A DNA stretch of 64,000 bases from Candidatus Kaiserbacteria bacterium (GTDB taxonomy: Bacteria > Patescibacteriota > Minisyncoccia > Phycocordibacterales > UBA918), in the NCBI GenBank assembly GCA_031430855.1, contig JANPCG010000013.1:26347-90346 (forward strand), written 5' to 3'. Under the pieces are notes generated by a model. That model saw only the letters and a program-made list of their open reading frames with translations, was not told the DNA's origin and made no database searches. This document shows, piece by piece, positions 3,996-57,662 of the stretch; the stretch's first letter is position 1, and each line of letters starts with the position of its first letter. The translations under genes were made by a program, and so were the position numbers.

Positions 3996-4072
3996 AATGG
4001 TTTAAATTATGGCATAGACATCGCAAGATTGTAAGTAATTTTATACGCTTTCTGAGTGGTATACTTGAAAAT

Positions 4073-4495
4073 ATGTTTAAAAAAATACTGATTGGGTTCT
4101 TTGCGTCGTTAGGAATAATTTTCTTCTGTATCCTGGTTGGTCTCGCGTATCTAATTATCGCTGATCCTTTCAATCTACGCCCGATGGTCTCATTGTTGCT
4201 TCAAACTCAAGCCGAACAGTCGGAAAGTAGTGGGGGTACTATCATAAAAGACGAGTTGCGAGGTGCCCCGGTGCCGACTGGAGAAAGTGATATTTCGGTG
4301 GAGTCGGCTACTGATATTTCTGTTACGAGCGAGCAGTCGAAGGCAATGGAATCAGTTGGTCTTTCTCCGAATTCAATTTCAGCAGATCAAGAGGCTTGTT
4401 TTGTGGGTATTCTCGGACAGGCTCGTGTTGATGAGGTTAAAGCCGGAGCTGTACCTTCAGCGAGTGAGTTCTTCAGTGCGCGTGAGTGCTTGTAA
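4073..4495 (+). CDS. Hypothetical small exported/membrane protein
   Basis: ORF with N-terminal TM segment. Low complexity, no recognised domain. Confidence 0.35.
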   Translation: MFKKILIGFFASLGIIFFCILVGLAYLIIADPFNLRPMVSLLLQTQAEQSESSGGTIIKDELRGAPVPTGESDISVESATDISVTSEQSKAMESVGLSPNSISADQEACFVGILGQARVDEVKAGAVPSASEFFSARECL

Positions 4496-4539
4496 GATGC
4501 AATCATTTTTCGGTATCGAAAATCAAATTTTATGCTAGT

Positions 4540-5307
4540 ATGAGCGCCATGCAACAAGAAATTGTCTATATATTTGGCAAACACGCGGTGGCCGAAGCCC
4601 TTCAGTATCGGCCCGGGGTGGTTCGTGAACTTTACATCGAACATGGTTTTAATGACGAGGGTATCTTTGCTCATCTATCACATGCTCCAGTACCTCCTAA
4701 AGTGCTCAATCCAAAACGTTTGCCTGGTGGTTTACGGGGTGACGCTGTTCATCAGGGGATTATTGCGGGTATCGCCATTTCTGAGCTGATGGTGCCCTAC
4801 GCTGATTTTATTTCAGGTCATGCCCCTACGCCTGATACCTGCGTACTCATTCTGGGAGAGGTTCAAGATCCCCATAATGTAGGGGCGGTAATCAGGAGTG
4901 CTGCTGCCTTTGGAGTAAGTGCGGTAATGATTCCCCCACATAATCAGTCGCCAGTCACGGGGACGGTCGTTAAAGTATCTGCGGGAATGGCATTTCGGAT
5001 TCCTTTGGTTGAAATTAGTAATGTAAACAGCACGATTCGTGATCTTCAAAATCGAGGTTTTTGGGTTTATGGATTAGCGGGCGAAGGGTCTGTTTCAGTT
5101 ACTACAGAAGAGTTTACGAAGCCAACGGCGTTTGTGGTAGGGAATGAAGGTATGGGGTTACGAGAAAAAACTCGAGAAGTATGCGATATATTAGTAAATA
5201 TCCCTATGCATGCCCGTTGTGAGTCATTAAATGCAGCGGCTTCGGCGGCAATTGTCATGTATGCCTGGAGTACGCAACATCCGCATGCTTTGTCCCCGAG
5301 CCGGTAA
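4540..5307 (+). CDS. SpoU/TrmH-family RNA 2'-O-methyltransferase (RlmB-like)
   Basis: Motifs VVGNEGMGLR and CESLNAAASAAIVMY (SPOUT fold). Start moved to MSAMQQ to avoid overlap with the upstream ORF. Confidence 0.8.
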   Translation: MSAMQQEIVYIFGKHAVAEALQYRPGVVRELYIEHGFNDEGIFAHLSHAPVPPKVLNPKRLPGGLRGDAVHQGIIAGIAISELMVPYADFISGHAPTPDTCVLILGEVQDPHNVGAVIRSAAAFGVSAVMIPPHNQSPVTGTVVKVSAGMAFRIPLVEISNVNSTIRDLQNRGFWVYGLAGEGSVSVTTEEFTKPTAFVVGNEGMGLREKTREVCDILVNIPMHARCESLNAAASAAIVMYAWSTQHPHALSPSR

Positions 5308-19389: not shown

Positions 19390-19689
19390 ATGGAACCTGA
19401 GACTCAAACTGATCATGACTGCATGCGTAGTCTCTTGGAGGCTAATAATGCGCTTTTGGTCGAAAATAATGCCCTTCTAAAAAAAATTGATCGGCGAGAT
19501 ATCCGAGCGATGTGGTTTAAATTTATCTGGATTGCCTTATTAATCGGGCTACCACTGCTGTTTATGTCGTACTTCATAAATACGTATATGGGCATGTTGG
19601 GGTTAGGAAGTAATAGTGCAGATTCCCCGAGTATTTTAGAGAGCTTAAGTGAGGCGCAGCGGACCCTCGATGAACTTCGAGGACAATAG
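19390..19689 (+). CDS. Hypothetical small membrane protein
   Basis: 99 aa with one TM segment and a coiled-coil N-terminus. Confidence 0.35.
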   Translation: MEPETQTDHDCMRSLLEANNALLVENNALLKKIDRRDIRAMWFKFIWIALLIGLPLLFMSYFINTYMGMLGLGSNSADSPSILESLSEAQRTLDELRGQ

Positions 19690-19788
19690 TAATCCCTCTT
19701 GGGGTAGGTTGAAAATAAGTCAAAACCAGGTACAATGCTGACTATCGCTCCTTAGGAAAAGGGCAATAAAATAGATGAAGATTCACCC

Positions 19789-19861
19789 GCTTGGGTAGCT
19801 CAGTTGGTAGAGCATTTCCCTGAAGAGGAAGGGGTCGGCGGTTCGAGCCCGCCCCCAAGCA
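19789..19861 (+). tRNA. tRNA-Phe (anticodon GAA)
   Basis: GCTTGGG acceptor, D-loop AGTTGGTA, anticodon loop ctGAAga, T-loop GGTTCGAGC, discriminator A. Confidence 0.9.
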
Positions 19862-20133
19862 CCGCGTACAGAAAGCCCCGCAAGGGGCTATTTCTGTACC
19901 CGGTGCTTGGGGAGTAAAGCGCCTGCGCGCTTTACGTGCGGGCTCGAAAGGCGCAGACATGTGTTGCTCGTAAGAGCAACAAGTCGAGCCGGGGTCGCGA
20001 ACACTTTGTAGATTATGAGCGTAGCGAAATAATGTACTTAGTGATTCGTGACCGGGCCCACCCCACAAGGGGCTATTTCTGTACCCGGTGCTTGAGGAGC
20101 AACTTACTAATATCAGTTGCGTGCGGGTGAGGA

Positions 20134-20210
20134 GTGACTTAATGTCACTCCGCAAGACCTTGCCAGCTCTTTTGGAAAAAGAGCTGGCAAGGTATACAGT
20201 TTCTGTAAGA
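20134..20210 (+). repeat. Structured repeat element (GTGAC-N5-GTCAC dyad plus hairpin), copy 2
   Basis: Paralogous to 17671-17756, with perfect hairpin ccttgccagctcttt-tggaa-aaagagctggcaagg. Confidence 0.5.
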
Positions 20211-20272
20211 TCGGCGCGTCGGGGTCGAGAGTACTTACTAGAATTAGAGCCGAAGGCGAACAAATATAGTTA

Positions 20273-20301
20273 GGCAAAACATAATGGGATTATGTTTTGC
20301 C
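20273..20301 (+). terminator. Hairpin ending the non-coding region upstream of the NUDIX gene
   Basis: ggcaaaacataat-ggga-ttatgttttgcc. Confidence 0.4.
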
Positions 20302-20341
20302 GTGACCGCCCCCGCCCCAAAATTTGCTATACTGACAATCT

Positions 20342-20758
20342 ATGGAAATTAAAAACGGTTACTACAGGCTCAGCGTAAAGGCACTTATTTTTGACTATAC
20401 GCTAACAAAATTTCTACTAGTTCAAGAAGATAACGGTAAATGGGAGCTACCTGGAGGTGGTTTAGATTGGGGAGAGAGTCCCGAGGAGGGAATCCGGCGC
20501 GAGATAAAAGAAGAGATGGGGCTTACAGTTACTTGTGTCGCAAGTCAGCCGACATATCTCACAACTGTCGCCCGGGATAGTGATGGTAGGTGGATAGCAA
20601 ATGTGCTATTTGAAACAGAAGTGAAAGACTTTAATTTCACTCCATCAAATGAATGTGTGGCATTAAAATTTGTTACGCCAGAAGAAGCAAAAAATTTACC
20701 TTTGTTTATTACGTTTAAAAAATTCTTAGAAGTTTTTGATGTAAATAATCATCTTTAG
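20342..20758 (+). CDS. NUDIX hydrolase
   Basis: Nudix box GGGLDWGESPEEGIRREIKEEMGL. Confidence 0.8.
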   Translation: MEIKNGYYRLSVKALIFDYTLTKFLLVQEDNGKWELPGGGLDWGESPEEGIRREIKEEMGLTVTCVASQPTYLTTVARDSDGRWIANVLFETEVKDFNFTPSNECVALKFVTPEEAKNLPLFITFKKFLEVFDVNNHL

Positions 20759-28889: not shown

Positions 28890-29053
28890 AAATAAAGCGC
28901 GTTCCAGGGAGACGCGCCTTGTGGTAGGAGAGGGGTGGACCGCTAAGGCCCGTGGGTGTCAAAGCAGTAGTCTGCCTCTCCTCCAAATATAATACTCCTT
29001 ATTATTTATATGTAAAGGGGAGGTGGGGATAACGTATTACTGGTCGTCCTGAC

Positions 29054-29102
29054 GGTCACAAATTCGCTTGCGCTCATAAGTGCCGTGGGACACGACTCGC
29101 GG
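29054..29102 (+). repeat. Degenerate copy of the GGTCAC...TAAGTG repeat family (A-unit)
   Basis: ggtcacaaattcgcttgcgctcataagtgccgtggg. Shares TTCGCT-N2-CGCTC-ATAAGTGC with the 36.4-kb copies. tcctgacggtcac is also found at 34473-34485. Confidence 0.35.
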
Positions 29103-29175
29103 TTTCGGCATTAGGAATAGCCGAAACAACGCTCCGTCGTTCGATCCCTGGACGAAACATGCGCAGGCATGTTTC

Positions 29176-29231
29176 TTATGCGCACAAAATAAAACCGCCC
29201 AGGAGGGCGGTTTTATTTTGTGCGCATACCA
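29176..29231. terminator. 52-nt perfect palindrome that includes the tRNA-Val 3' acceptor end and acts as its terminator
   Basis: tatgcgcacaaaataaaaccgccc-agga-gggcggttttattttgtgcgcata. Confidence 0.5.
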
Positions 29232-34061: not shown

Positions 34062-34230
34062 TTTGGTATATCCTCCGATGTTGGTACCAAGGGTAATAAA
34101 TTATCACATTATTGAAAAATGTCAAATGGGGGTGGGTGGCGTTTGGGTATTATTTGAGCGCGAAATTGAAGCCTTTTGCTCTGTGGTCATCACTCGAGTA
34201 CGAAACTGAAGCAGTTCAGAAAGCCCTCGT

Positions 34231-34321
34231 GGTCACGAATCACTAAGTATATTTGTTCACTGCGTTCCAAATCTACTAAGTGTTCTCGACCCGAGAAACA
34301 GTGTTTAGACACTGTTTCTCC
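34231..34321 (+). repeat. Modular intergenic repeat, units A+B
   Basis: A-unit: ggtcacgaatcactaagtatatttgttcactgcgttccaaatctactaagtgttctcgaccc. B-unit hairpin: gagaaacagtg-tttagac-actgtttctcc. The units recur at 56.7 kb, 57.1 kb and 36.4-36.7 kb. Confidence 0.55.
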
Positions 34322-34380
34322 GACGGTTTCTTTTTTCTATAAATGAAAAAGAAACATCGCTGCGGTTATCACAACGGCCC

Positions 34381-34447
34381 GCAAGTGACGCAGGTCACTT
34401 GCTAGATTAGAAAATACCCCAGCATTTGCTGGGGTATTTTCTAATCT
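34381..34447. repeat. Pair of perfect hairpins (GCAG-loop hairpin plus 20-bp AT-flanked hairpin)
   Basis: gcaagtgac-GCAG-gtcacttgc, then tagattagaaaataccccagc-attt-gctggggtattttctaatcta. Confidence 0.5.
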
Positions 34448-34830
34448 GCCGTTGTGTTCCCACGGGTAATGATCCTGACGGTCACCAAGCTATATTTTTT
34501 CATTTCATTCAAAATCTAGCAGGTGCCGCGGGACACGCCTCATTCATAGCAAAGCTATATCATTCCGGCGTTTCGATTACCGCAAAAGACACGCAGATGT
34601 CTTTTTCGTGGGATCACGCAACAAAAACGGCATTCACAGATGTGAATGCTCGTTTTTGTACGCGTGATCCCACGGGTAATCGAAACCCGATTTTCAGGAT
34701 GAAAACCTGATGTCCTAACCGTTAGACGATGGGACCCTAATTCCTAGGGTTTGTAACTTCATTCCTTAGGTGCGCACTATAATACCAAAAAAGTCAAAAA
34801 AAGCTAGTCATAAGGACAAGTTTTCTCTGT

Positions 34831-34870
34831 TGCGGAAGCGAGAGGATTCGAACATTACATGTTCGGTACA
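34831..34870 (-). repeat. Partial direct copy of the tRNA-Ser 3' end (23 nt) plus conserved junction palindrome
   Basis: tgcggaagcgagaggattcgaac matches 34953-34975 exactly. It is followed by ATTACATGTTCGGTACA, forming GAACAT-TAC-ATGTTC. Confidence 0.6.
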
Positions 34871-34954
34871 CCTTTCGTATCGTACCCACTCCGTTCCGTG
34901 CGATGTACTTAAGGTCTTCAAATCCTCTTTTGAAACTGACGTTTCAAATTCCTG

Positions 34955-36296: not shown

Positions 36297-36425
36297 ACAA
36301 AAACTGAAATTGCTAAGTGAAGAGTAGTTTAGCATATTTTGATGAGAGGGATGTGGGAATAAGAAAACCAGCCGGGTGGGCTGGGTTTCTTGGTCTGAAG
36401 ATTTTTGGAAAGAAATACCGGCACC

Positions 36426-36487
36426 GGTCACAAGTTACTAACCATAATCATTCGCTACGCTCTGATTCTAGTAAGTACTTGCGACCC
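36426..36487 (+). repeat. A-unit repeat copy (36.4 kb, a)
   Basis: ggtcacaagttactaaccataatcattcgctacgctctgattctagtaagtacttgcgacccc. Confidence 0.5.
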
Positions 36488-36603
36488 CGGCGGGCTGGTT
36501 CAGGGCATTAGTAATAGCCCTTCACATCGCTCCGCCTCGCCGTTCCGGCTTCTTGCTAGTCAAAACTTATTTAAGTTTTGATCGACGCAAGAAAGCCGGC
36601 ACC

Positions 36604-36665
36604 GGTCACGAGTCACTAATCATAATGGTTCGTTTCACTCCCCTTCTGATAAGTGCTCGCGACCC
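36604..36665 (+). repeat. A-unit repeat copy (36.6 kb, b), in the ftsZ 3' region
   Basis: ggtcacgagtcactaatcataatggttcgtttcactccccttctgataagtgctcgcgacccc. The terminal stem covaries with copy a (caag/cttg versus cgag/ctcg). Confidence 0.5.
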
Positions 36666-36715
36666 CGCCTTGCTGTCTCGGCTTCGCCTCGTATCGCTGC
36701 GGCCGGCAGTGCCTT

Positions 36716-37954
36716 TTATTTCAGCTTGCTTCGCCGCAGAAATGCAGGTACTGCCCCCCAATCGTCCTCTTCCTCATCAATTGGGTCAACGGGCTTTGGG
36801 TCGCGACGGGGAAGCTCTGGCTTTGGTTCCATAGTCTCTACTCGAGCAATTGGCGTCTGTGCCTCTTCGACGTCACGTCGTGGATTGGTGAGTGAATTGA
36901 AAATTCGTCCCCGGGTATCAGGAGCCTTCTCTTCTACTTCAGGTTCCATTGGTGCTGCCATCGGAGCTCGCCTCGAGATGGCATGATTGTGAGCCATTTC
37001 TTCCGGGAAGCCGGTAGCAATAACGGTCACCTTGATTTCATTTTTCTTAAGCTTCTCGTCTTTAATAGCTCCAAAGATTACGCGTGCTTGTGGGTCAATT
37101 GATTCAGTAATTACGCGTGCTGCATCTTGAATCTCGAGCATTCCGAGATCGTCACCACCAGCAATCGCAAATAGGACGCCTTTCGCTCCGGTGATTGAGA
37201 CTTCAAGGAGGGGAGAGTTAATAGCTGATTGAGCCGCTTCTTCAGCGCGCTTCTCACCAGTGGAAACACCAACACCCATGAGGGCTGAACCGGCATTTTC
37301 CATAACTGAACGGATGTCGGCAAAGTCGACGTTAATGATACCAGGCATCGTGATGAGGTCAGAGATACCTTCCACCGCTTGTTTGAGGACGTTATCACAT
37401 TGTTGGAACGCATTTTGAACGGTGGTTTCTTTATCAACAATTGCAAGGAGGCGATCATTAGGAATGATGATGAGAGCATCAACTTCCTTTTTAAGTTCTT
37501 CAATACCCTGAAGAGCCAAACGCATTCGTTCTTGTCCTTCAAAGAGGAAAGGTTTAGTGACCACACCAACCGTCAAGGCACCACTCTCTCGTGCGATCTT
37601 TGCAATTACGGGAGCAGCTCCAGTTCCGGTTCCACCACCCATACCACAGGTGATGAAAATCATGTCAGAACCCTTGATGGCATTATTGATTTCTTCACGG
37701 GTTTCTTCGGCAGCACGACGTCCCATGTCGGGATTACCACCAGCTCCAAGACCACGGGTAAGGTTCTTACCAATGTGGATTTTTTTCTTGGCGAGCGAGT
37801 GGTGAAGGTCTTGCGCATCACTGTTAATGGCAATAAATTCTACTCCTTTCACTTTAGCGCCCACCATGTAGTTCACGGCATTGTTGCCTGAACCCCCGGC
37901 TCCTACGACTCGGATTCGTGCAAAAGATTCAACGTCTGATTTTATTTGTTCCAT
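36716..37954 (-). CDS. ftsZ: Cell division GTPase FtsZ
   Basis: GGGTGTG tubulin signature. Long acidic C-terminal linker. Confidence 0.9.
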
Positions 37955-48669: not shown

Positions 48670-49973
48670 TGAAGCTGCGTCCTTTTGAATTAGCGTTGGT
48701 GTGTATCTTTAGTGCGCTTATTCTCGTGGCGTTATATTTGATGGCCAACCCCAACATGAGCAACAATAAGCTTCCGCCCCAATTTGGTACTTCGGTCGTT
48801 ATTTGGGGTACTGAGCCACAGGCCGCCTTTCAAGCCGTGTTTGACGGGATTCAAGACGTTAATGAAGATTTTGAAGTAGTGTCCTACGTGCAAAAGGATG
48901 CGCGCACCTTTGATAATGAGGTTATTAATGCGCTAGCTGAAAATCGCGGTCCAGATATTCTTTTCCTACCCCACGAAAAACTCCTCCAGTATCGGAGCAA
49001 AATCCAACCCCTGTCTGAACAAACCCTTCCCGTGCCGGATTTTAAGCGAAATTTTATTGATGGATCCGAGATCTTTATTTTACCGGATGGTATCTATGCG
49101 TTCCCGGCAGCAGTTGATCCATTAGTGCTATACTTTAATCGCGATATCCTCAGTACCAAAAATTTTATCAACCCTCCGGCTACGTGGGAGTCAGTTGTCA
49201 ATGAGTTAGTTCCGAGTCTCGTTGAGCGTGATTTTGGGAGAAATATAATCCGAAGTCCGCTCGCGTTTGGGGAGTATCGTAACGTAACCAACGCCTTTGA
49301 CATAATCTCAATGCTATTTTTGCAGGGGGGGAGTGGGCTGGTTGTTCAAGTGGGAAATAACTACCGTATTCAACTCAATCAAAGTCTGAGTGGCATCGGG
49401 GTGCCGCTTCAAAATGCGGTCACGTTCTATACAAATTTTGCGAGTCCGAGTAACCCACTCTATAGTTGGAATCGGGCCCAAGGGAACGACCGAGAAGAAT
49501 TTTTAGGCGAGGAGCTTGCTTTGTACTTTGGCAAGGGGAGCGAAGCTCGTGATATTGCCGTTGATAATCCGAACCTAAATTTCGACATTGCCGAAGTACC
49601 ACAAGGAGCCGCCGCCACTGTCCGGCGTACGTATGGTACCGTATATGGCTTTACCTTATTGCGGTCAGCCCAGAATCCAGCTGGAGCAGTACAGACGATG
49701 TATGAACTGACCAAGCCAGCTAATAGCGTTCTCTTGGCCAATAATCTCACGATGGCGCCGGCTAGTCGCTCTGGATTAAGTAGTGGTTCAAATGATGAGT
49801 ATGGTAGAGTAATTTACAGCGCTGCAACTGTAGCGCGCGGCTGGCTCAACCCGGAACCGCAAGTAGCCAATGACATCTTTACACAAATGGTGGAGGATGT
49901 TCTCGCAAACCGAGCCCGGCCGAGCGATGCTGCAGTAGATGCGGTTGGACGGTTGCGTGATGTGTATAAATAG
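48666..49973 (+). CDS. Membrane-anchored extracellular solute-binding-protein-like protein
   Basis: N-terminal TM segment followed by an SBP_bac_1-like periplasmic domain pattern. Low certainty. Confidence 0.4.
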   Translation: MMKLRPFELALVCIFSALILVALYLMANPNMSNNKLPPQFGTSVVIWGTEPQAAFQAVFDGIQDVNEDFEVVSYVQKDARTFDNEVINALAENRGPDILFLPHEKLLQYRSKIQPLSEQTLPVPDFKRNFIDGSEIFILPDGIYAFPAAVDPLVLYFNRDILSTKNFINPPATWESVVNELVPSLVERDFGRNIIRSPLAFGEYRNVTNAFDIISMLFLQGGSGLVVQVGNNYRIQLNQSLSGIGVPLQNAVTFYTNFASPSNPLYSWNRAQGNDREEFLGEELALYFGKGSEARDIAVDNPNLNFDIAEVPQGAAATVRRTYGTVYGFTLLRSAQNPAGAVQTMYELTKPANSVLLANNLTMAPASRSGLSSGSNDEYGRVIYSAATVARGWLNPEPQVANDIFTQMVEDVLANRARPSDAAVDAVGRLRDVYK

Positions 49974-49974
49974 T

Positions 49975-50385
49975 ATGGTTAAAACATTTTTTTCAAAAAT
50001 TTATTTCTTAGGGCTACTAGCTCTGCTTTCTGTACAATCAGTATATGCACAAGGGACAGGTGGCGGTAGTGCAGGCAGTGGTGGTACTGGCGGTGGCGGC
50101 GCAGGCTCGGTACGAATGGAGAACTATCTCTCGGTAGATACTATTCAAGACCTACTTGTTGCAATTCTCAATATCGTTATTATTTTGATGATTCCAATCA
50201 TTGTGTTCTTTATCATTCTGGCTGGTTTCAAATACGTGACGGCGCGCGGTAACGCGTCCCAGGTCGAGGAAGCAACGCGAGCGCTTACCTATGCGATTAT
50301 CGGCGGCGTCTTAGTGCTTGGTGCGGTGGCTCTCAGTGAGATTATTGCAAACGTCGTTGGACAATTTTCTAATACTACTCCATGA
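49975..50385 (+). CDS. T4SS-pilin-like (TrbC/VirB2-like) small membrane protein, paralog 1
   Basis: Signal peptide, Gly-rich linker, then TM-loop(KYVTARGNASQVEEATR)-TM. Confidence 0.5.
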   Translation: MVKTFFSKIYFLGLLALLSVQSVYAQGTGGGSAGSGGTGGGGAGSVRMENYLSVDTIQDLLVAILNIVIILMIPIIVFFIILAGFKYVTARGNASQVEEATRALTYAIIGGVLVLGAVALSEIIANVVGQFSNTTP

Positions 50386-50732: not shown

Positions 50733-51110
50733 ATGAAAAAAATTCTGTCATTATTAGGTGTATTTGCCCTCGCGGTTGTGCCTGCGATTACTTCAGCACA
50801 GATTGTGGACGGTTCTGCGGGTGATCTCGGAACAACCATCTCTGGTCTCGTTGATATTATCAATACGTATTTGATTCCGTTTGTTCTTGCCCTCGCTTTC
50901 CTCGTGTTTGTGTGGGGTATGTTCAAATTTTTTATCCTTGGCGGTGCCAATGATGAAGCGAAAGAATCAGGCAAGAGTTTGATTATCTATGCTTTGGCTG
51001 GATTTGTACTCATTGTTATCTTCTGGGGACTTGTTAACTTCTTGGTTGACCTCATCGGAGTTGATACGGCGGGACCAATTACACCACCGACAGGACCGAC
51101 GGTACCGTAA
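50733..51110 (+). CDS. T4SS-pilin-like small membrane protein, paralog 3
   Basis: Sec signal peptide (cleavage near AITSAQ), then TM-loop(GGANDEAKESGK)-TM and a Pro-rich tail. Confidence 0.5.
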   Translation: MKKILSLLGVFALAVVPAITSAQIVDGSAGDLGTTISGLVDIINTYLIPFVLALAFLVFVWGMFKFFILGGANDEAKESGKSLIIYALAGFVLIVIFWGLVNFLVDLIGVDTAGPITPPTGPTVP

Positions 51111-56236: not shown

Positions 56237-56353
56237 ATGAGAGTAACACGAAGAGAGTGCGCGCGTGCGAGGTGACGGGGGCACCGCGCAAGACCATTTG
56301 AGCTTATTTTGACCGAAGGGAGTAAATGAGCCAAATGGTATACAGCTTCGGTA

Positions 56354-56386
56354 CGAAGAGGACTTGAATCTTACAGATTCTGTACA
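56354..56386 (-). repeat. Degenerate partial copy of the tRNA-Leu(TAG) 3' end plus covarying junction palindrome
   Basis: gaagaggacttgaatc, compared with the tRNA's gagaggacttgaacc. It is followed by TTACAGATTCTGTACA, forming GAATCT-TAC-AGATTC. Confidence 0.5.
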
Positions 56387-56432
56387 CCTTTTGGATATAT
56401 TCTCCCGCCGGTCGAATCTATCGCAAAAGGTT

Positions 56433-56485
56433 TTGAAACAGTTTCCCAAACTGTTTCAACCTCCACGGATTGCTCCATTAGTTCC
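56433..56485 (-). repeat. Perfect 12-bp hairpin plus a 28-nt exact copy of an internal tRNA-Leu(TAG) segment
   Basis: ttgaaacagttt-ccca-aactgtttcaa. aacctccacggattgctccattagttcc matches 56528-56555 exactly. Confidence 0.5.
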
Positions 56486-56509
56486 ATTTTGTTTGTAAAC
56501 CTTTCAAAG

Positions 56510-56591
56510 TGCGCGCGAGAGGACTTGAACCTCCACGGATTGCTCCATTAGTTCCTAAGACTAACGCGGCTACCAATTACGCCACACGCGC
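56510..56591 (-). tRNA. tRNA-Leu (anticodon TAG)
   Basis: Class-II tRNA. Acceptor GCGCGTG/CGCGCGC (one G-U pair), anticodon arm ttagt-ctTAGga-actaa, long variable arm, T-loop GGTTCAAGTCC. Confidence 0.85.
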
Positions 56592-56672
56592 ACTTTGAAA
56601 ACTTTACTGTGTCGACGAGTATAGCATGAAAATAGGGGTTTGCCAGGGTTGGTGGTCGCACCAAGATTCTGT

Positions 56673-56767
56673 GGTCACAGATAATTTCTTTCATAAATTT
56701 CCGCGACCCGAGAAACAGTGTTTAGACACTGTTTCTCCCACTGTCGCAGGGCGACATGTCTCCGTCT
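56673..56767 (+). repeat. Modular intergenic repeat, units A'(short)+B+C
   Basis: ggtcacagataatttctttcataaatttccgcgaccc + gagaaacagtgtttagacactgtttctcc + cactgtcgcagggcgacatgtctccgtct. Confidence 0.55.
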
Positions 56768-56780
56768 CGCACCAGAGCAC

Positions 56781-56845
56781 GTATCTGCCGCAGGGCAGAT
56801 ACCAAACAATAAATACCATTCATTTGAATGGTATTTTATTGTTTG
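56781..56845 (-). terminator. GCAG-loop hairpin plus 19-bp perfect hairpin terminator of tRNA-Lys
   Basis: gtatctgcc-GCAG-ggcagatac, then caaacaataaataccattc-attt-gaatggtattttattgtttg. Confidence 0.55.
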
Positions 56846-56848
56846 CTC

Positions 56849-56924
56849 TGGTGCGCCCTCAAGGATTCGAACCTTGGACCGTCTCCTTAAGAGGGAGCTA
56901 CTCTACCAACTGAGTTAAGGGCGC
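56849..56924 (-). tRNA. tRNA-Lys (anticodon CTT), CCA encoded
   Basis: Acceptor GCGCCCT/AGGGCGC, D-loop AGTTGGTA, anticodon loop ctCTTaa, T-loop GGTTCGAATCC, 3' ACCA. Confidence 0.8.
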
Positions 56925-57000
56925 ATTGCTATGTATTAGTACATACGACCCGGCGTTCTTAATGAGGGCAAAGTGCATGGGATGCAGTTTGCGCGACACT

Positions 57001-57020
57001 ACTGAGTTAAGGGTGCAATG
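57001..57020 (-). repeat. Partial copy of the tRNA-Lys 5' acceptor/D-arm segment
   Basis: actgagttaagggtgcaatg, compared with actgagttaagggcgcattg at 56909-56928 (18 of 20 identical). Confidence 0.45.
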
Positions 57021-57090
57021 TATTAAGTTGTGGGCCAAAGTGTACAAGATTATGACCAAATTAACAAGGTATTAGTAGGGGCGTGACTTG

Positions 57091-57186
57091 GTCGCAAATC
57101 ACTAAGTATATTTGTTCACTTCGTTCCAAATTTACTAAGTGTTTGCGACCCCGACTCAACTGTCGCAGAGCGACATGTTTCCGTCT
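57091..57186 (+). repeat. Modular intergenic repeat, units A+C
   Basis: ggtcgcaaatcactaagtatatttgttcacttcgttccaaatttactaagtgtttgcgacc + caactgtcgcagagcgacatgtttccgtct. Confidence 0.55.
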
Positions 57187-57299
57187 TTCAAGTCCCGCAC
57201 GCAAGCAAAGCAGTTTGCTTGCTCCCCGGCACAAAATACAACTACCGCAAGCTATTGCTTGCGGTAGTTGTATTTTGTGCCGGGGAGCGGGACTTGAAC
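57187..57299. repeat. ~110-nt palindrome made of two inverted copies of the tRNA-Leu(TAA) T-arm/acceptor 3' segment around a perfect 19-bp hairpin
   Basis: Left arm ttcaagtcccgc[gcaagcaaa-GCAG-tttgcttgc]tccccggcac. Centre aaaatacaactaccgcaagc-tatt-gcttgcggtagttgtatttt. Right arm gtgccggggagcgggacttgaa. Confidence 0.55.
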
Positions 57300-57316
57300 A
57301 TTACATGTTCGGTACA
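57277..57316 (-). repeat. Partial direct copy of the tRNA-Leu(TAA) 3' end (23 nt) plus junction palindrome
   Basis: gtgccggggagcgggacttgaac, compared with the tRNA's gtgccgggagcgggacttgaac. It is followed by ATTACATGTTCGGTACA. Confidence 0.6.
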
Positions 57317-57429
57317 GGTTGTCGCCACTTTACTTCGCTTCCAGCTCATAAAGTTGCAGGCAACCTTTTCAAGTCCCTGGGGCAAATGCAAAAACTCCCC
57401 AGATAAAAATCTGAAGAGTTTTTACATTG

Positions 57430-57513
57430 TGCCGGGAGCGGGACTTGAACCCGCACGGGCTTGCGCCCACAAAATTTTAAGTCTTGCGTGGCTACCGATT
57501 ACACCATCCCGGC
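57430..57513 (-). tRNA. tRNA-Leu (anticodon TAA)
   Basis: Class-II tRNA. Acceptor GCCGGGA/TCCCGGC, anticodon arm caaga-ctTAAaa-ttttg, variable arm with a GCAA tetraloop, T-loop GGTTCAAGTCC. Confidence 0.85.
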
Positions 57514-57618
57514 ACTGACTTTTTTATGGAATCTTCCGTTACACGGACCGTATCCGTTGTCGCTATATTATTTCACTTCGTTCATAATCTAGCAGCCAAC
57601 AGCTTCGATTCCCTTGTC

Positions 57619-57662
57619 ATATCTAAAACAAAACATAAAGAAATATGTTTTGTTTTAGATAT
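57619..57662 (-). terminator. Perfect 19-bp hairpin terminator abutting the tRNA-Cys 3' end
   Basis: atatctaaaacaaaacata-aagaaa-tatgttttgttttagatat. Confidence 0.55.

Follow-up and report, generated by a model that had tools for sequence, protein, structure and literature searches.

Candidate gene-less integrative cassettes with one-strand-folded cores at the 3′ ends of tRNA-Phe and other conserved genes in Patescibacteria

Integrative elements of several kinds are associated with the ends of conserved genes; phages and integrative and conjugative elements have attachment (att) sites in tRNA genes, and e14 and phage 21 are located at icd. A 64-kb stretch of a Candidatus Kaiserbacteria contig (the window, in whose positions coordinates are given) contains at 19864–20319 two head-to-tail units of a multi-copy element attached to tRNA-Phe. 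Each unit, read on the strand of its upstream gene, has the order X, P_b, P_c, anti-X, P-domain, core hairpin and X′, where X is the 3′ end of the gene, anti-X its complement, and X′ a second copy of X past the core. The reading that we favour, with some reservation, is that the tRNA-Phe region is an array of two miniature integrative cassettes without open reading frames (ORFs), belonging to a family that targets conserved-gene 3′ ends in Patescibacteria and has a site folded from one strand.

Three described systems are among the closest. Elements that integrate at tRNA or other gene ends likewise supply a replacement 3′ end that keeps the gene intact, leave the old end as a distal direct repeat, have a T-loop crossover site and form arrays by tandem accretion; however, the element described here is 136–250 nt in length, has no integrase or other gene, and contains a one-strand core and an internal complement of its target. 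Integrative mobile elements exploiting Xer (IMEX) such as CTXphi share the lack of a recombinase of their own, att sites formed from paired inverted segments in one strand, and tandem arrays, and the order X–hairpin–anti-X…X′ is the expected outcome of single-strand exchange of such a fold. CTXphi, however, targets dif via XerCD and is several kb in length, whereas the element is ~0.2 kb, has no replication genes and targets many unrelated gene ends; the paired X:anti-X sequences vary between loci, which speaks against a single, invariant dif-like site of 28 bp. Integron cassettes are similarly small promoter-less units arranged head-to-tail beside a fixed attachment point, and their attC sites are imperfect hairpins with extrahelical or mismatched bases formed from one strand, with the crossover at the base and with peripheral parts whose structure is better conserved than their sequence, as in the element. 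The core nonetheless lacks the R″/R′ boxes (RYYYAAC/GTTRRRY), its base being GGGGTCG…CGTGACC in the 122 aligned copies, there is no IntI, attI or Pc near the element, dozens of attachment sites are present per genome, each a gene 3′ end, and the element carries a copy and a complement of its target and no cargo ORF. By analogy, it resembles the logic of integron attC and CTXphi attP, without their sequence boxes or integrase, and we assign it, as a novel form, to the cassette-like type of integrative mobile DNA. No description of it is present in Rfam or in the literature covered by full-text searches.

Gene ends, their complements and the junction

Unit 1 of the tRNA-Phe array (19864–20053) is intact, and unit 2 (20054–20306) is older, with a 5′ truncation and an insertion (Table 1). 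P_b of unit 1 has the features of an intrinsic terminator, with a GC core (19874–19889) followed by a T-rich tail (ATTTCTGTAC); P_b hairpins at other loci have A and T runs on their flanks. It is part of a longer inverted repeat (19853–19874/19891–19912) whose 22-nt arms are 95% complementary and which contains the reverse complement of the tRNA-Phe acceptor 3′ strand. Beyond P_c, whose CTGC loop is the most frequent across loci, positions 19938–19948 are an exact complement of the T-loop and T-stem of tRNA-Phe (19842–19852), and this anti-T segment also complements T54 and T55, which are located to the left of the repeat boundary. A preliminary description of the stretch, made from the letters alone, overlooked this complement as well as the degenerate copies of the tRNA-Phe 3′ part that repeat analysis places at 20053–20065 and 20301–20313. 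The hairpins and repeats that it did list are all present (e.g. gtaaagcgc-CTGC-gcgctttac at 19914–19935), and its suggestion of either a noncoding RNA or an integration remnant was largely right in the second alternative; not so its assignment of a 37-nt direct repeat as att-like. This repeat comprises the 3′ arm of P_b and the anti-acceptor, once in each of two successive units, and falls at 19876–19917 and 20061–20102, where 42 nt are 93% identical; the att-like repeats at this locus are the tRNA 3′-part copies at 20054–20065 and 20307–20319. The former may be read as a displaced, older end of tRNA-Phe, and at the equivalent place three relatives (L121, L123 and L119) have an intact GAGCCCGCCCCC.

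The promoter scan finds no internal promoter within the tRNA-Phe module. The unit array is situated between the tRNA-Phe terminator and the next promoter, where a −10-like box of the NUDIX gene (TGCTATACT; 20320–20341 region) abuts X″ and is kept in L121 (~940–970).

The displaced ends at ftsZ (gene 36716–37954) appear decisive for integration. The DNA directly after the first ftsZ-linked core still encodes the FtsZ C-terminus, and 9 of the last 12 codons (11 amino-acid codons and the stop) differ between X and X′, all of them synonymously and including Ser AGC vs TCA; the copy after the second core is decayed (PVPVFLSKNLQTK). Synonymous-only differences are unlike those of a non-functional duplicate, and indicate that X and X′ have both been working ends in different lineages, one of them probably imported. 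The same displaced-end pattern is seen by eye at ftsZ in another genome (L011) and at rplE, rplB and rplL in others.

Matching of X and anti-X within a unit is general, with anti-X comprising 10–13 nt complementary across the left junction. When the tRNA end and trailer of each of 73 tRNA-linked units were compared with the sequence upstream of the core, complementarity of at least 9 nt was present in 56 of the cognate pairings but in 45 of 780 non-cognate ones. A direct copy of the tRNA end of at least 8 nt follows the core in 28/73 units (15/783 in controls). Where the target is a protein gene, the complementarity of anti-X is to the final codons of the ORF; a comparison of two rplL orthologues shows that anti-X changes along with the ORF end. 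The targets include 18 tRNA isotypes plus rplB, rplL, rplE, rpsI and ftsZ, and both the inverted and direct repeats are local gene-end copies, ~4 to 39 nt in length and different at every locus.

The junction is defined precisely. In 16 of 23 tRNA loci, representing 12 isotypes, the repeat starts with the final C of the core (..GTGAC|C-R57), equivalent to C56 of the tRNA; the junction is therefore site-specific, at the base of the core hairpin. At the other side, anti-X extends leftwards past the repeat boundary by 2–5 nt and pairs with flanking sequence not carried by the unit (T54 and T55 in tRNAs, CT at rplE, GGC at ftsZ and, in a short type, the final 5 nt of the tRNA). The displaced ends and the precise junction together have the appearance of the footprint of Campbell-type insertions, in which a new gene end is supplied and the old one displaced distally.

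Table 1. Features of the tRNA-Phe array and of the other units in the window.
Feature	Coordinates	Strand	Evidence or remarks
Promoter-like site of tRNA-Phe	19709–19736	+	promoter scan
tRNA-Phe(GAA)	19789–19863	+	ARAGORN; Rfam tRNA 67.6 bits
X, tRNA-Phe T-loop to 3′ end (TTCGAGCCCGCCCCCAAGCACC)	19842–19863	+	complemented and re-copied downstream
P_b, terminator-like hairpin	19866–19899	+	extends outward into X/anti-acceptor pairing
Anti-acceptor, reverse complement of tRNA acceptor 3′ strand plus two extra bases	19900–19912	+	inverted repeat
P_c, 9-bp hairpin with CTGC loop	19914–19935	+	flanked by AG and GT junction bases
Anti-T (anti-X_a), complement of T-loop and T-stem 3′ strand	19938–19949	+	reaches T54 and T55
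P-domain	19950–19990	+	H1 GGC/GCC, internal loop GCA/GA, H2 GAC/GTC, ATGT, GTAA-loop hairpin; fold
Core hairpin copy A (unit 1)	19993–20053	+	model R1 83.7 bits, E 4.5e-19
X′, degenerate tRNA-Phe 3′-part copy (GGGCCCACCCCA)	20054–20065	+	start of unit 2
Unit 2, 5′ part	20061–20127	+	P_b 5′ arm deleted
Unit 2 anti-acceptor copy	20085–20097	+	
Unit 2 P_c-like hairpin	20099–20120	+	
Unit 2 truncated anti-T	20123–20127	+	
Unit 2 variable hairpins	20128–20154 and 20157–20193	+	latter 17 bp, perfect
TACAGTTTCTGTAAGA module in unit 2	20194–20210	+	resembles module preceding X′ at Ser and Leu loci
Core hairpin copy B (unit 2)	20221–20306	+	R1 28.9 bits; nhmmer 38.9 bits; alignment
X″, oldest tRNA-Phe 3′-part remnant (GCCCCCGCCCC)	20307–20319	+	orthologous ends intact in L121 and L119
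Reduced-core unit after tRNA-Val	29040–29219	-	
Two units after tRNA-Glu	34225–34663	-	cores 34467–34540 and 34226–34297
Short family-B unit after tRNA-Ser	34831–34953	-	perfect 22-nt X′ at 34831–34852
Two units after ftsZ	36389–36715	-	X′ 36567–36605 coding; X″ 36389–36427 decayed
Units after tRNA-Cys, tRNA-Leu(taa), tRNA-Lys and tRNA-Leu(tag)	56340–57662	-	two units at tRNA-Leu(taa), core 57085–57156

Structure within one strand

The core is an imperfect hairpin of 61 nt, and its structure is conserved among 122 aligned copies, including irregularities such as U.U, G.A and A.G mismatches and a bulged A58. In this alignment 94% of the cells are paired and double changes occur at 17 of the 24 pairs; none of 500 shuffles reaches the observed values, and slid controls pair to no more than 46%. 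G.T greatly exceeds A.C (176 vs 24), and a single pair is G.U in 106 of the copies. For the sequence upstream of the core, the sense strand likewise gives the better fold in 58 of 71 units (145 vs 60 G.U pairs). The P-domain has a general form of two 3-bp helices round a GSA/GA internal loop, followed by (A/U/C)UGU and a variable hairpin, which at tRNA-Phe is gttgctc-GTAA-gagcaac (19963–19980). Its helices covary as well, with H1 fully paired in 56/66 and H2 in 40/66 (shifted control, 1), and the conserved scaffold has two GNA/GA loops. Core covariation, the G.T excess, the sense-strand folding and the P-domain helices together show that the structure forms within one strand, the sense strand of the gene, as either RNA or single-stranded DNA. 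At the tRNA-Phe locus, the fold energy of the segment 19842–20066 (−138.4 kcal/mol, vs −75.2±4.3 in shuffles; z = −14.7) is that of a structure far beyond chance.

The commonest core apex among the 122 is GCGAAGC, a GAA triloop on a C-G pair; as DNA, d(GCGAAGC) is an unusually stable mini-hairpin. L123 has a plain GC stem-loop in place of the entire GA/GAA apex, and core copy B of the tRNA-Phe array carries a 29-nt inserted hairpin (20273–20301; 13 bp, perfect). P_b is usual in a cassette; the minimal unit without it is 136 nt, as defined by a five-unit array in a metagenome contig (L137).

The proposal in the preliminary description that the sequence downstream of tRNA-Phe is novel and structured is borne out, with a covarying core that has no Rfam match, and so is the statement that it contains no genuine ORF: a 64-aa plus-strand ORF and a 173-aa antisense ORF across the tRNA are the only ones, both spurious and overlapping, and protein coding is dismissed. 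In the window, only tRNAs pass Rfam gathering thresholds; no group I or II intron, ribozyme, riboswitch, 6S or ROOL/GOLLD family does so, and a search of 19600–20500 against Rfam 15 at E ≤ 10 returns, besides the tRNA, just chance miRNA-type hairpins of at most 21 bits. ARAGORN reports nine tRNAs and no tmRNA in the window, and the earlier dismissal of a tmRNA was thus correct. Several resemblances to known RNA motifs were considered and rejected. A hammerhead-like GA-stem-GAA lacks the CUGA box and has paired flanking bases; a K-turn or box C/D motif at the GNA/GA loops would need a 3-nt bulge with tandem G.A, a geometry at odds with the Watson-Crick covariation of H2; retroviral primer-binding-site-like priming by mature tRNA is not consistent with an anti-X that runs into the genomic trailer and not CCA; and H/ACA-like or T-box-like sensing of tRNA is dismissed since the same architecture stands behind protein genes.

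Copies in the window and in related genomes

The tRNA-Phe core is one of ~14 unit copies in the window, five of which have the canonical core, and the locus is not a single case. Units follow eight of the nine window tRNAs, the exception being tRNA-Arg(cct), and self-comparison of the window reveals related copies near 34.2, 36.4–36.7 and 57.1 kb; the likeness of the tRNA-Phe region to the Ser and Leu loci pointed out in the preliminary description reflects the same unit architecture at all three. Polarity is strict, with 84 cores having an upstream tRNA on the same strand, one on the opposite strand, and three having a downstream tRNA. An explanation of this bias through the lagging template is rejected, as units track the gene strand on both strands and GC skew is always positive.

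There are further types of core. A second family (GGTTGCC…GGCGACAACC; 34831–34953, 56340–56508, 57290–57428 and 57545–57662, all minus strand) has no P-domain and has, after the core, a conserved TGTACYGAACATGTAAKR module and X′ starting at T54, and a third, reduced core (GTGTCCCRCGGCAC…GTGACCGTCAGGA) is present at 29043–29090 and 34467–34540. At ~56460–56487 (minus strand), a 28-nt copy of tRNA-Leu(tag) from the anticodon arm to the T-stem is split exactly at the T-loop by an 88-nt unit, as if the unit had been inserted into a tRNA fragment displaced earlier. An identical 28-nt hairpin (GAGAAACAGTGTCTAAACACTGTTTCTC) located just upstream of the core in both the Glu (34291–34318) and Lys (56708–56735) units, again on the minus strand, suggests that modules may be exchanged between loci.

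An exact-pattern scan for the core, with one genome per species, identifies at least 117 stretches from at least 84 assemblies, nearly all labelled Paceibacteria, Parcubacteria, Kaiserbacteria, Nomurabacteria, Yonathbacteria, Vogelbacteria, Minisyncoccia or Patescibacteria, and in metagenomes the core is present in at least 120 contigs. Contigs with the element beside rplL, rplB or tRNA-Phe are also present in metagenome-assembled genomes (MAGs) labelled Patiriisocius (L076 and L100) and Acidimicrobiales (L087 and L112); these contigs, with labels outside the candidate phyla radiation (CPR), are probably mis-binned Patescibacteria. By eye, contigs at several metagenome loci (L131, L134, L136, L159, L162, L163, L175 and others) end less than ~100 nt from a core, as expected of a repeat that would break short-read assemblies.

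Relatives of the window, located through the neighbouring NUDIX gene, differ in the number of units at tRNA-Phe, with one in L123, ~1.5 in L121 and two in the window. The window and L121 are 68–76% identical in flanking genes (DNA) and 100% identical through tRNA-Phe and the first 106 nt of unit 1, with a different core; L123 has the same architecture with unrelated hairpin stems. L121 and L123 both have a unit at the Phe site and none at Arg(cct). The closest relative, L119, whose NUDIX is 93% identical, has been rearranged at a core, as indicated by an anti-T segment that matches another tRNA; ~590 nt upstream of that core (1–590) are ORF-poor and structured-looking, with no Rfam or tRNA match. 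The five units of the L137 array (4030–4700, minus strand) are perfect head-to-tail copies; only the first has a P_b hairpin and a full 10-bp match to the left junction. This array could have arisen by rolling-circle amplification, repeated integration or unequal crossing-over. No useful signal of concerted evolution, or of core lineages tied to particular loci, emerged.

Elsewhere in the window, two small proteins (49939–50385 and 50733–51110, plus strand) match the T4SS_pilin family, and Pfam matches are lacking for 13 of the 58 ORFs scanned.

Explanations and implications

The mode of movement of such cassettes is inferred from these arrangements. A free form would be a small circle or single strand in which X_a:anti-X, the P-domain and the core fold round one junction, and unit 1 without the tRNA is predicted to close in this way. 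A target would be chosen through pairing of anti-X with the target strand, and an enzyme encoded in trans would exchange strands at the junction with the matching chromosomal site. In the integrated state, as the sequence shows, the replacement 3′ end carried by an incoming cassette (X_e) becomes the working gene end, and the previous end is displaced past the cassette and joined exactly at the 3′ base of the core; with repeated insertions, cassettes stack up with the oldest and most decayed lying distally. Tandem arrays, variable unit number, turnover between relatives, matched X and anti-X within each unit, a genuine one-strand core structure and multi-copy spread are counted in support of integration, as are the conserved-gene targets, which are typical of integrative elements.

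A number of observations weigh against this reading. No recombinase, transposase or reverse transcriptase is found among the 58 window ORFs, and no protein family recurs in the neighbourhood of 117 loci, where clustering of 785 ORFs yields housekeeping families only, each in at most 10 loci. Neither an empty site nor a free or circular form was seen, and 2.9 million viral contigs contain a single weak match to the core. Cores differ by 11.4 of 61 nt within a genome and by 12.9 between genomes; as those within a genome are hardly more alike, most copies appear to be old, with no sign of recent bursts except for the tandem copies. Each target, moreover, requires its own lineage with matched X and anti-X, the reading does not account for the colonisation of new targets, and the occupancy of eight of nine tRNAs in a streamlined genome could reflect a host function.

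A bolder form of the cassette reading, which we hold only tentatively, is that these are the first examples of gene-less cassettes guided by nucleic acid, in which a unit of ~136 nt would comprise only a guide (anti-X), pairing with the target strand over the insertion point, and a conserved folded scaffold, and an outside enzyme or the fold itself would write the unit and the replacement gene end into essential-gene 3′ ends across Patescibacteria.

Distinctly less probable is that the units are cis-acting RNA modules of the host. Anti-X in a read-through transcript would pair with the gene 3′ end or X′, form a processing stem or act in termination or insulation, and the core would bind a host protein. 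The structure on the strand of the upstream gene, with G.U-type pairs dominant and better folding of the sense strand, is in keeping with this, as are the strict polarity (84 vs 1) whatever the strand of the tRNA and with GC skew positive window-wide, the units behind eight of nine tRNAs, the conservation of the Phe architecture across relatives whose NUDIX genes are 70–76% identical (DNA), and the failure to find a mobility gene. However, a host module leaves unexplained the displaced coding ends with synonymous-only changes, the five identical tandem units, the decaying distal copies and the variable unit number. The terminator-like hairpin also precedes the module, which has no promoter of its own, an anti-X paired with X would disrupt the tRNA fold or hide the stop codon, and the apical GA/GAA motif is dispensable in L123.

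We give about the same small weight to a mobile element guided by RNA or moving through an RNA intermediate, with the read-through transcript as guide, scaffold or ribozyme, a recombinase or reverse transcriptase acting in trans, and anti-X selecting the target. It would explain why anti-X spans the left junction by 2–5 nt into the chromosomal flank, has a near-constant length (10–13 nt) and accompanies a conserved scaffold with two GNA/GA loops, and why the folding strand is that of the transcript. The evidence, however, fits single-stranded DNA as well as RNA. Also against this reading, no Rfam intron, ribozyme or other family is matched, a gene for a partner protein is lacking, P_b loops show no excess of the GNRA and UNCG tetraloops typical of RNA, and the GCGAAGC apex is also very stable as DNA. 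IS110 bridge RNAs and IS1111 seekRNAs are structured noncoding scaffolds with a short guide complementary to a DNA target, like the element, but adjoin their own recombinase gene, whereas the element has no ORF and the window no DEDD/RuvC-like Pfam match. Palindrome-associated transposable elements (PATEs) of the IS200/IS605 type and repetitive extragenic palindromes (REPs) mobilised by REP-associated tyrosine transposases (RAYTs) share hairpin-rich, strand-specific, ORF-less units, an enzyme acting in trans and an internal guide that pairs with the flanking target; the guide of IS608, however, is 4 nt for a fixed tetranucleotide without duplication, and that of the element is 10–13 nt and locus-specific, with duplicated gene ends of 11–39 nt. 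No TnpA or RAYT gene was seen in the 64-kb window. Pairing of anti-X across the junction is similar to P1 of group I introns, but there is no RF00028 match and the inspected junctions are Watson-Crick rather than U.G. Miniature inverted-repeat transposable elements differ in that the element has neither family-wide terminal inverted repeats nor a target-site duplication of fixed length. The guide arrays of TIGR-Tas, reported from parasitic bacteria, have 36-nt units in long arrays beside a Tas gene (PMC12045711), and by their description are a different thing, no such gene or array being present at the element.

Scars of integrase-type prophages or islands, with the core only a double-stranded arm or binding site that outlasted loss of the interior by deletion, are very improbable: tyrosine-integrase elements classically show gene 3′-part repeats, a T-loop crossover and tandem accretion, but the P-domain and core are at fixed spacing in more than 120 copies with no gene-carrying version (a search for split core halves found separate units only), the covariation with G.T bias denotes intrastrand pairing and not a double-stranded protein site, viral contigs are almost without the core, and a classical integrase would have no need of anti-X.

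Even if the units are host RNA modules, they constitute a widespread, covarying structured element outside Rfam that would bear on the ends of tRNA transcripts in CPR bacteria. For annotation, they account for pseudo-tRNA fragments and ORF-free gaps downstream of Patescibacteria tRNAs. If the integrative cassette reading is true, CPR bacteria, which are among those with the smallest and the most streamlined genomes, carry dozens of copies of a gene-less parasite whose imported versions would overwrite the ends of tRNA, ribosomal-protein and ftsZ genes. Such cassettes would allow segments of essential genes to be replaced horizontally and would be a source of genome rearrangement and of breaks in MAG assemblies, as well as a compact, apparently programmable targeting module consisting of a 10–13-nt guide and a ~100-nt scaffold, with its enzyme encoded elsewhere.

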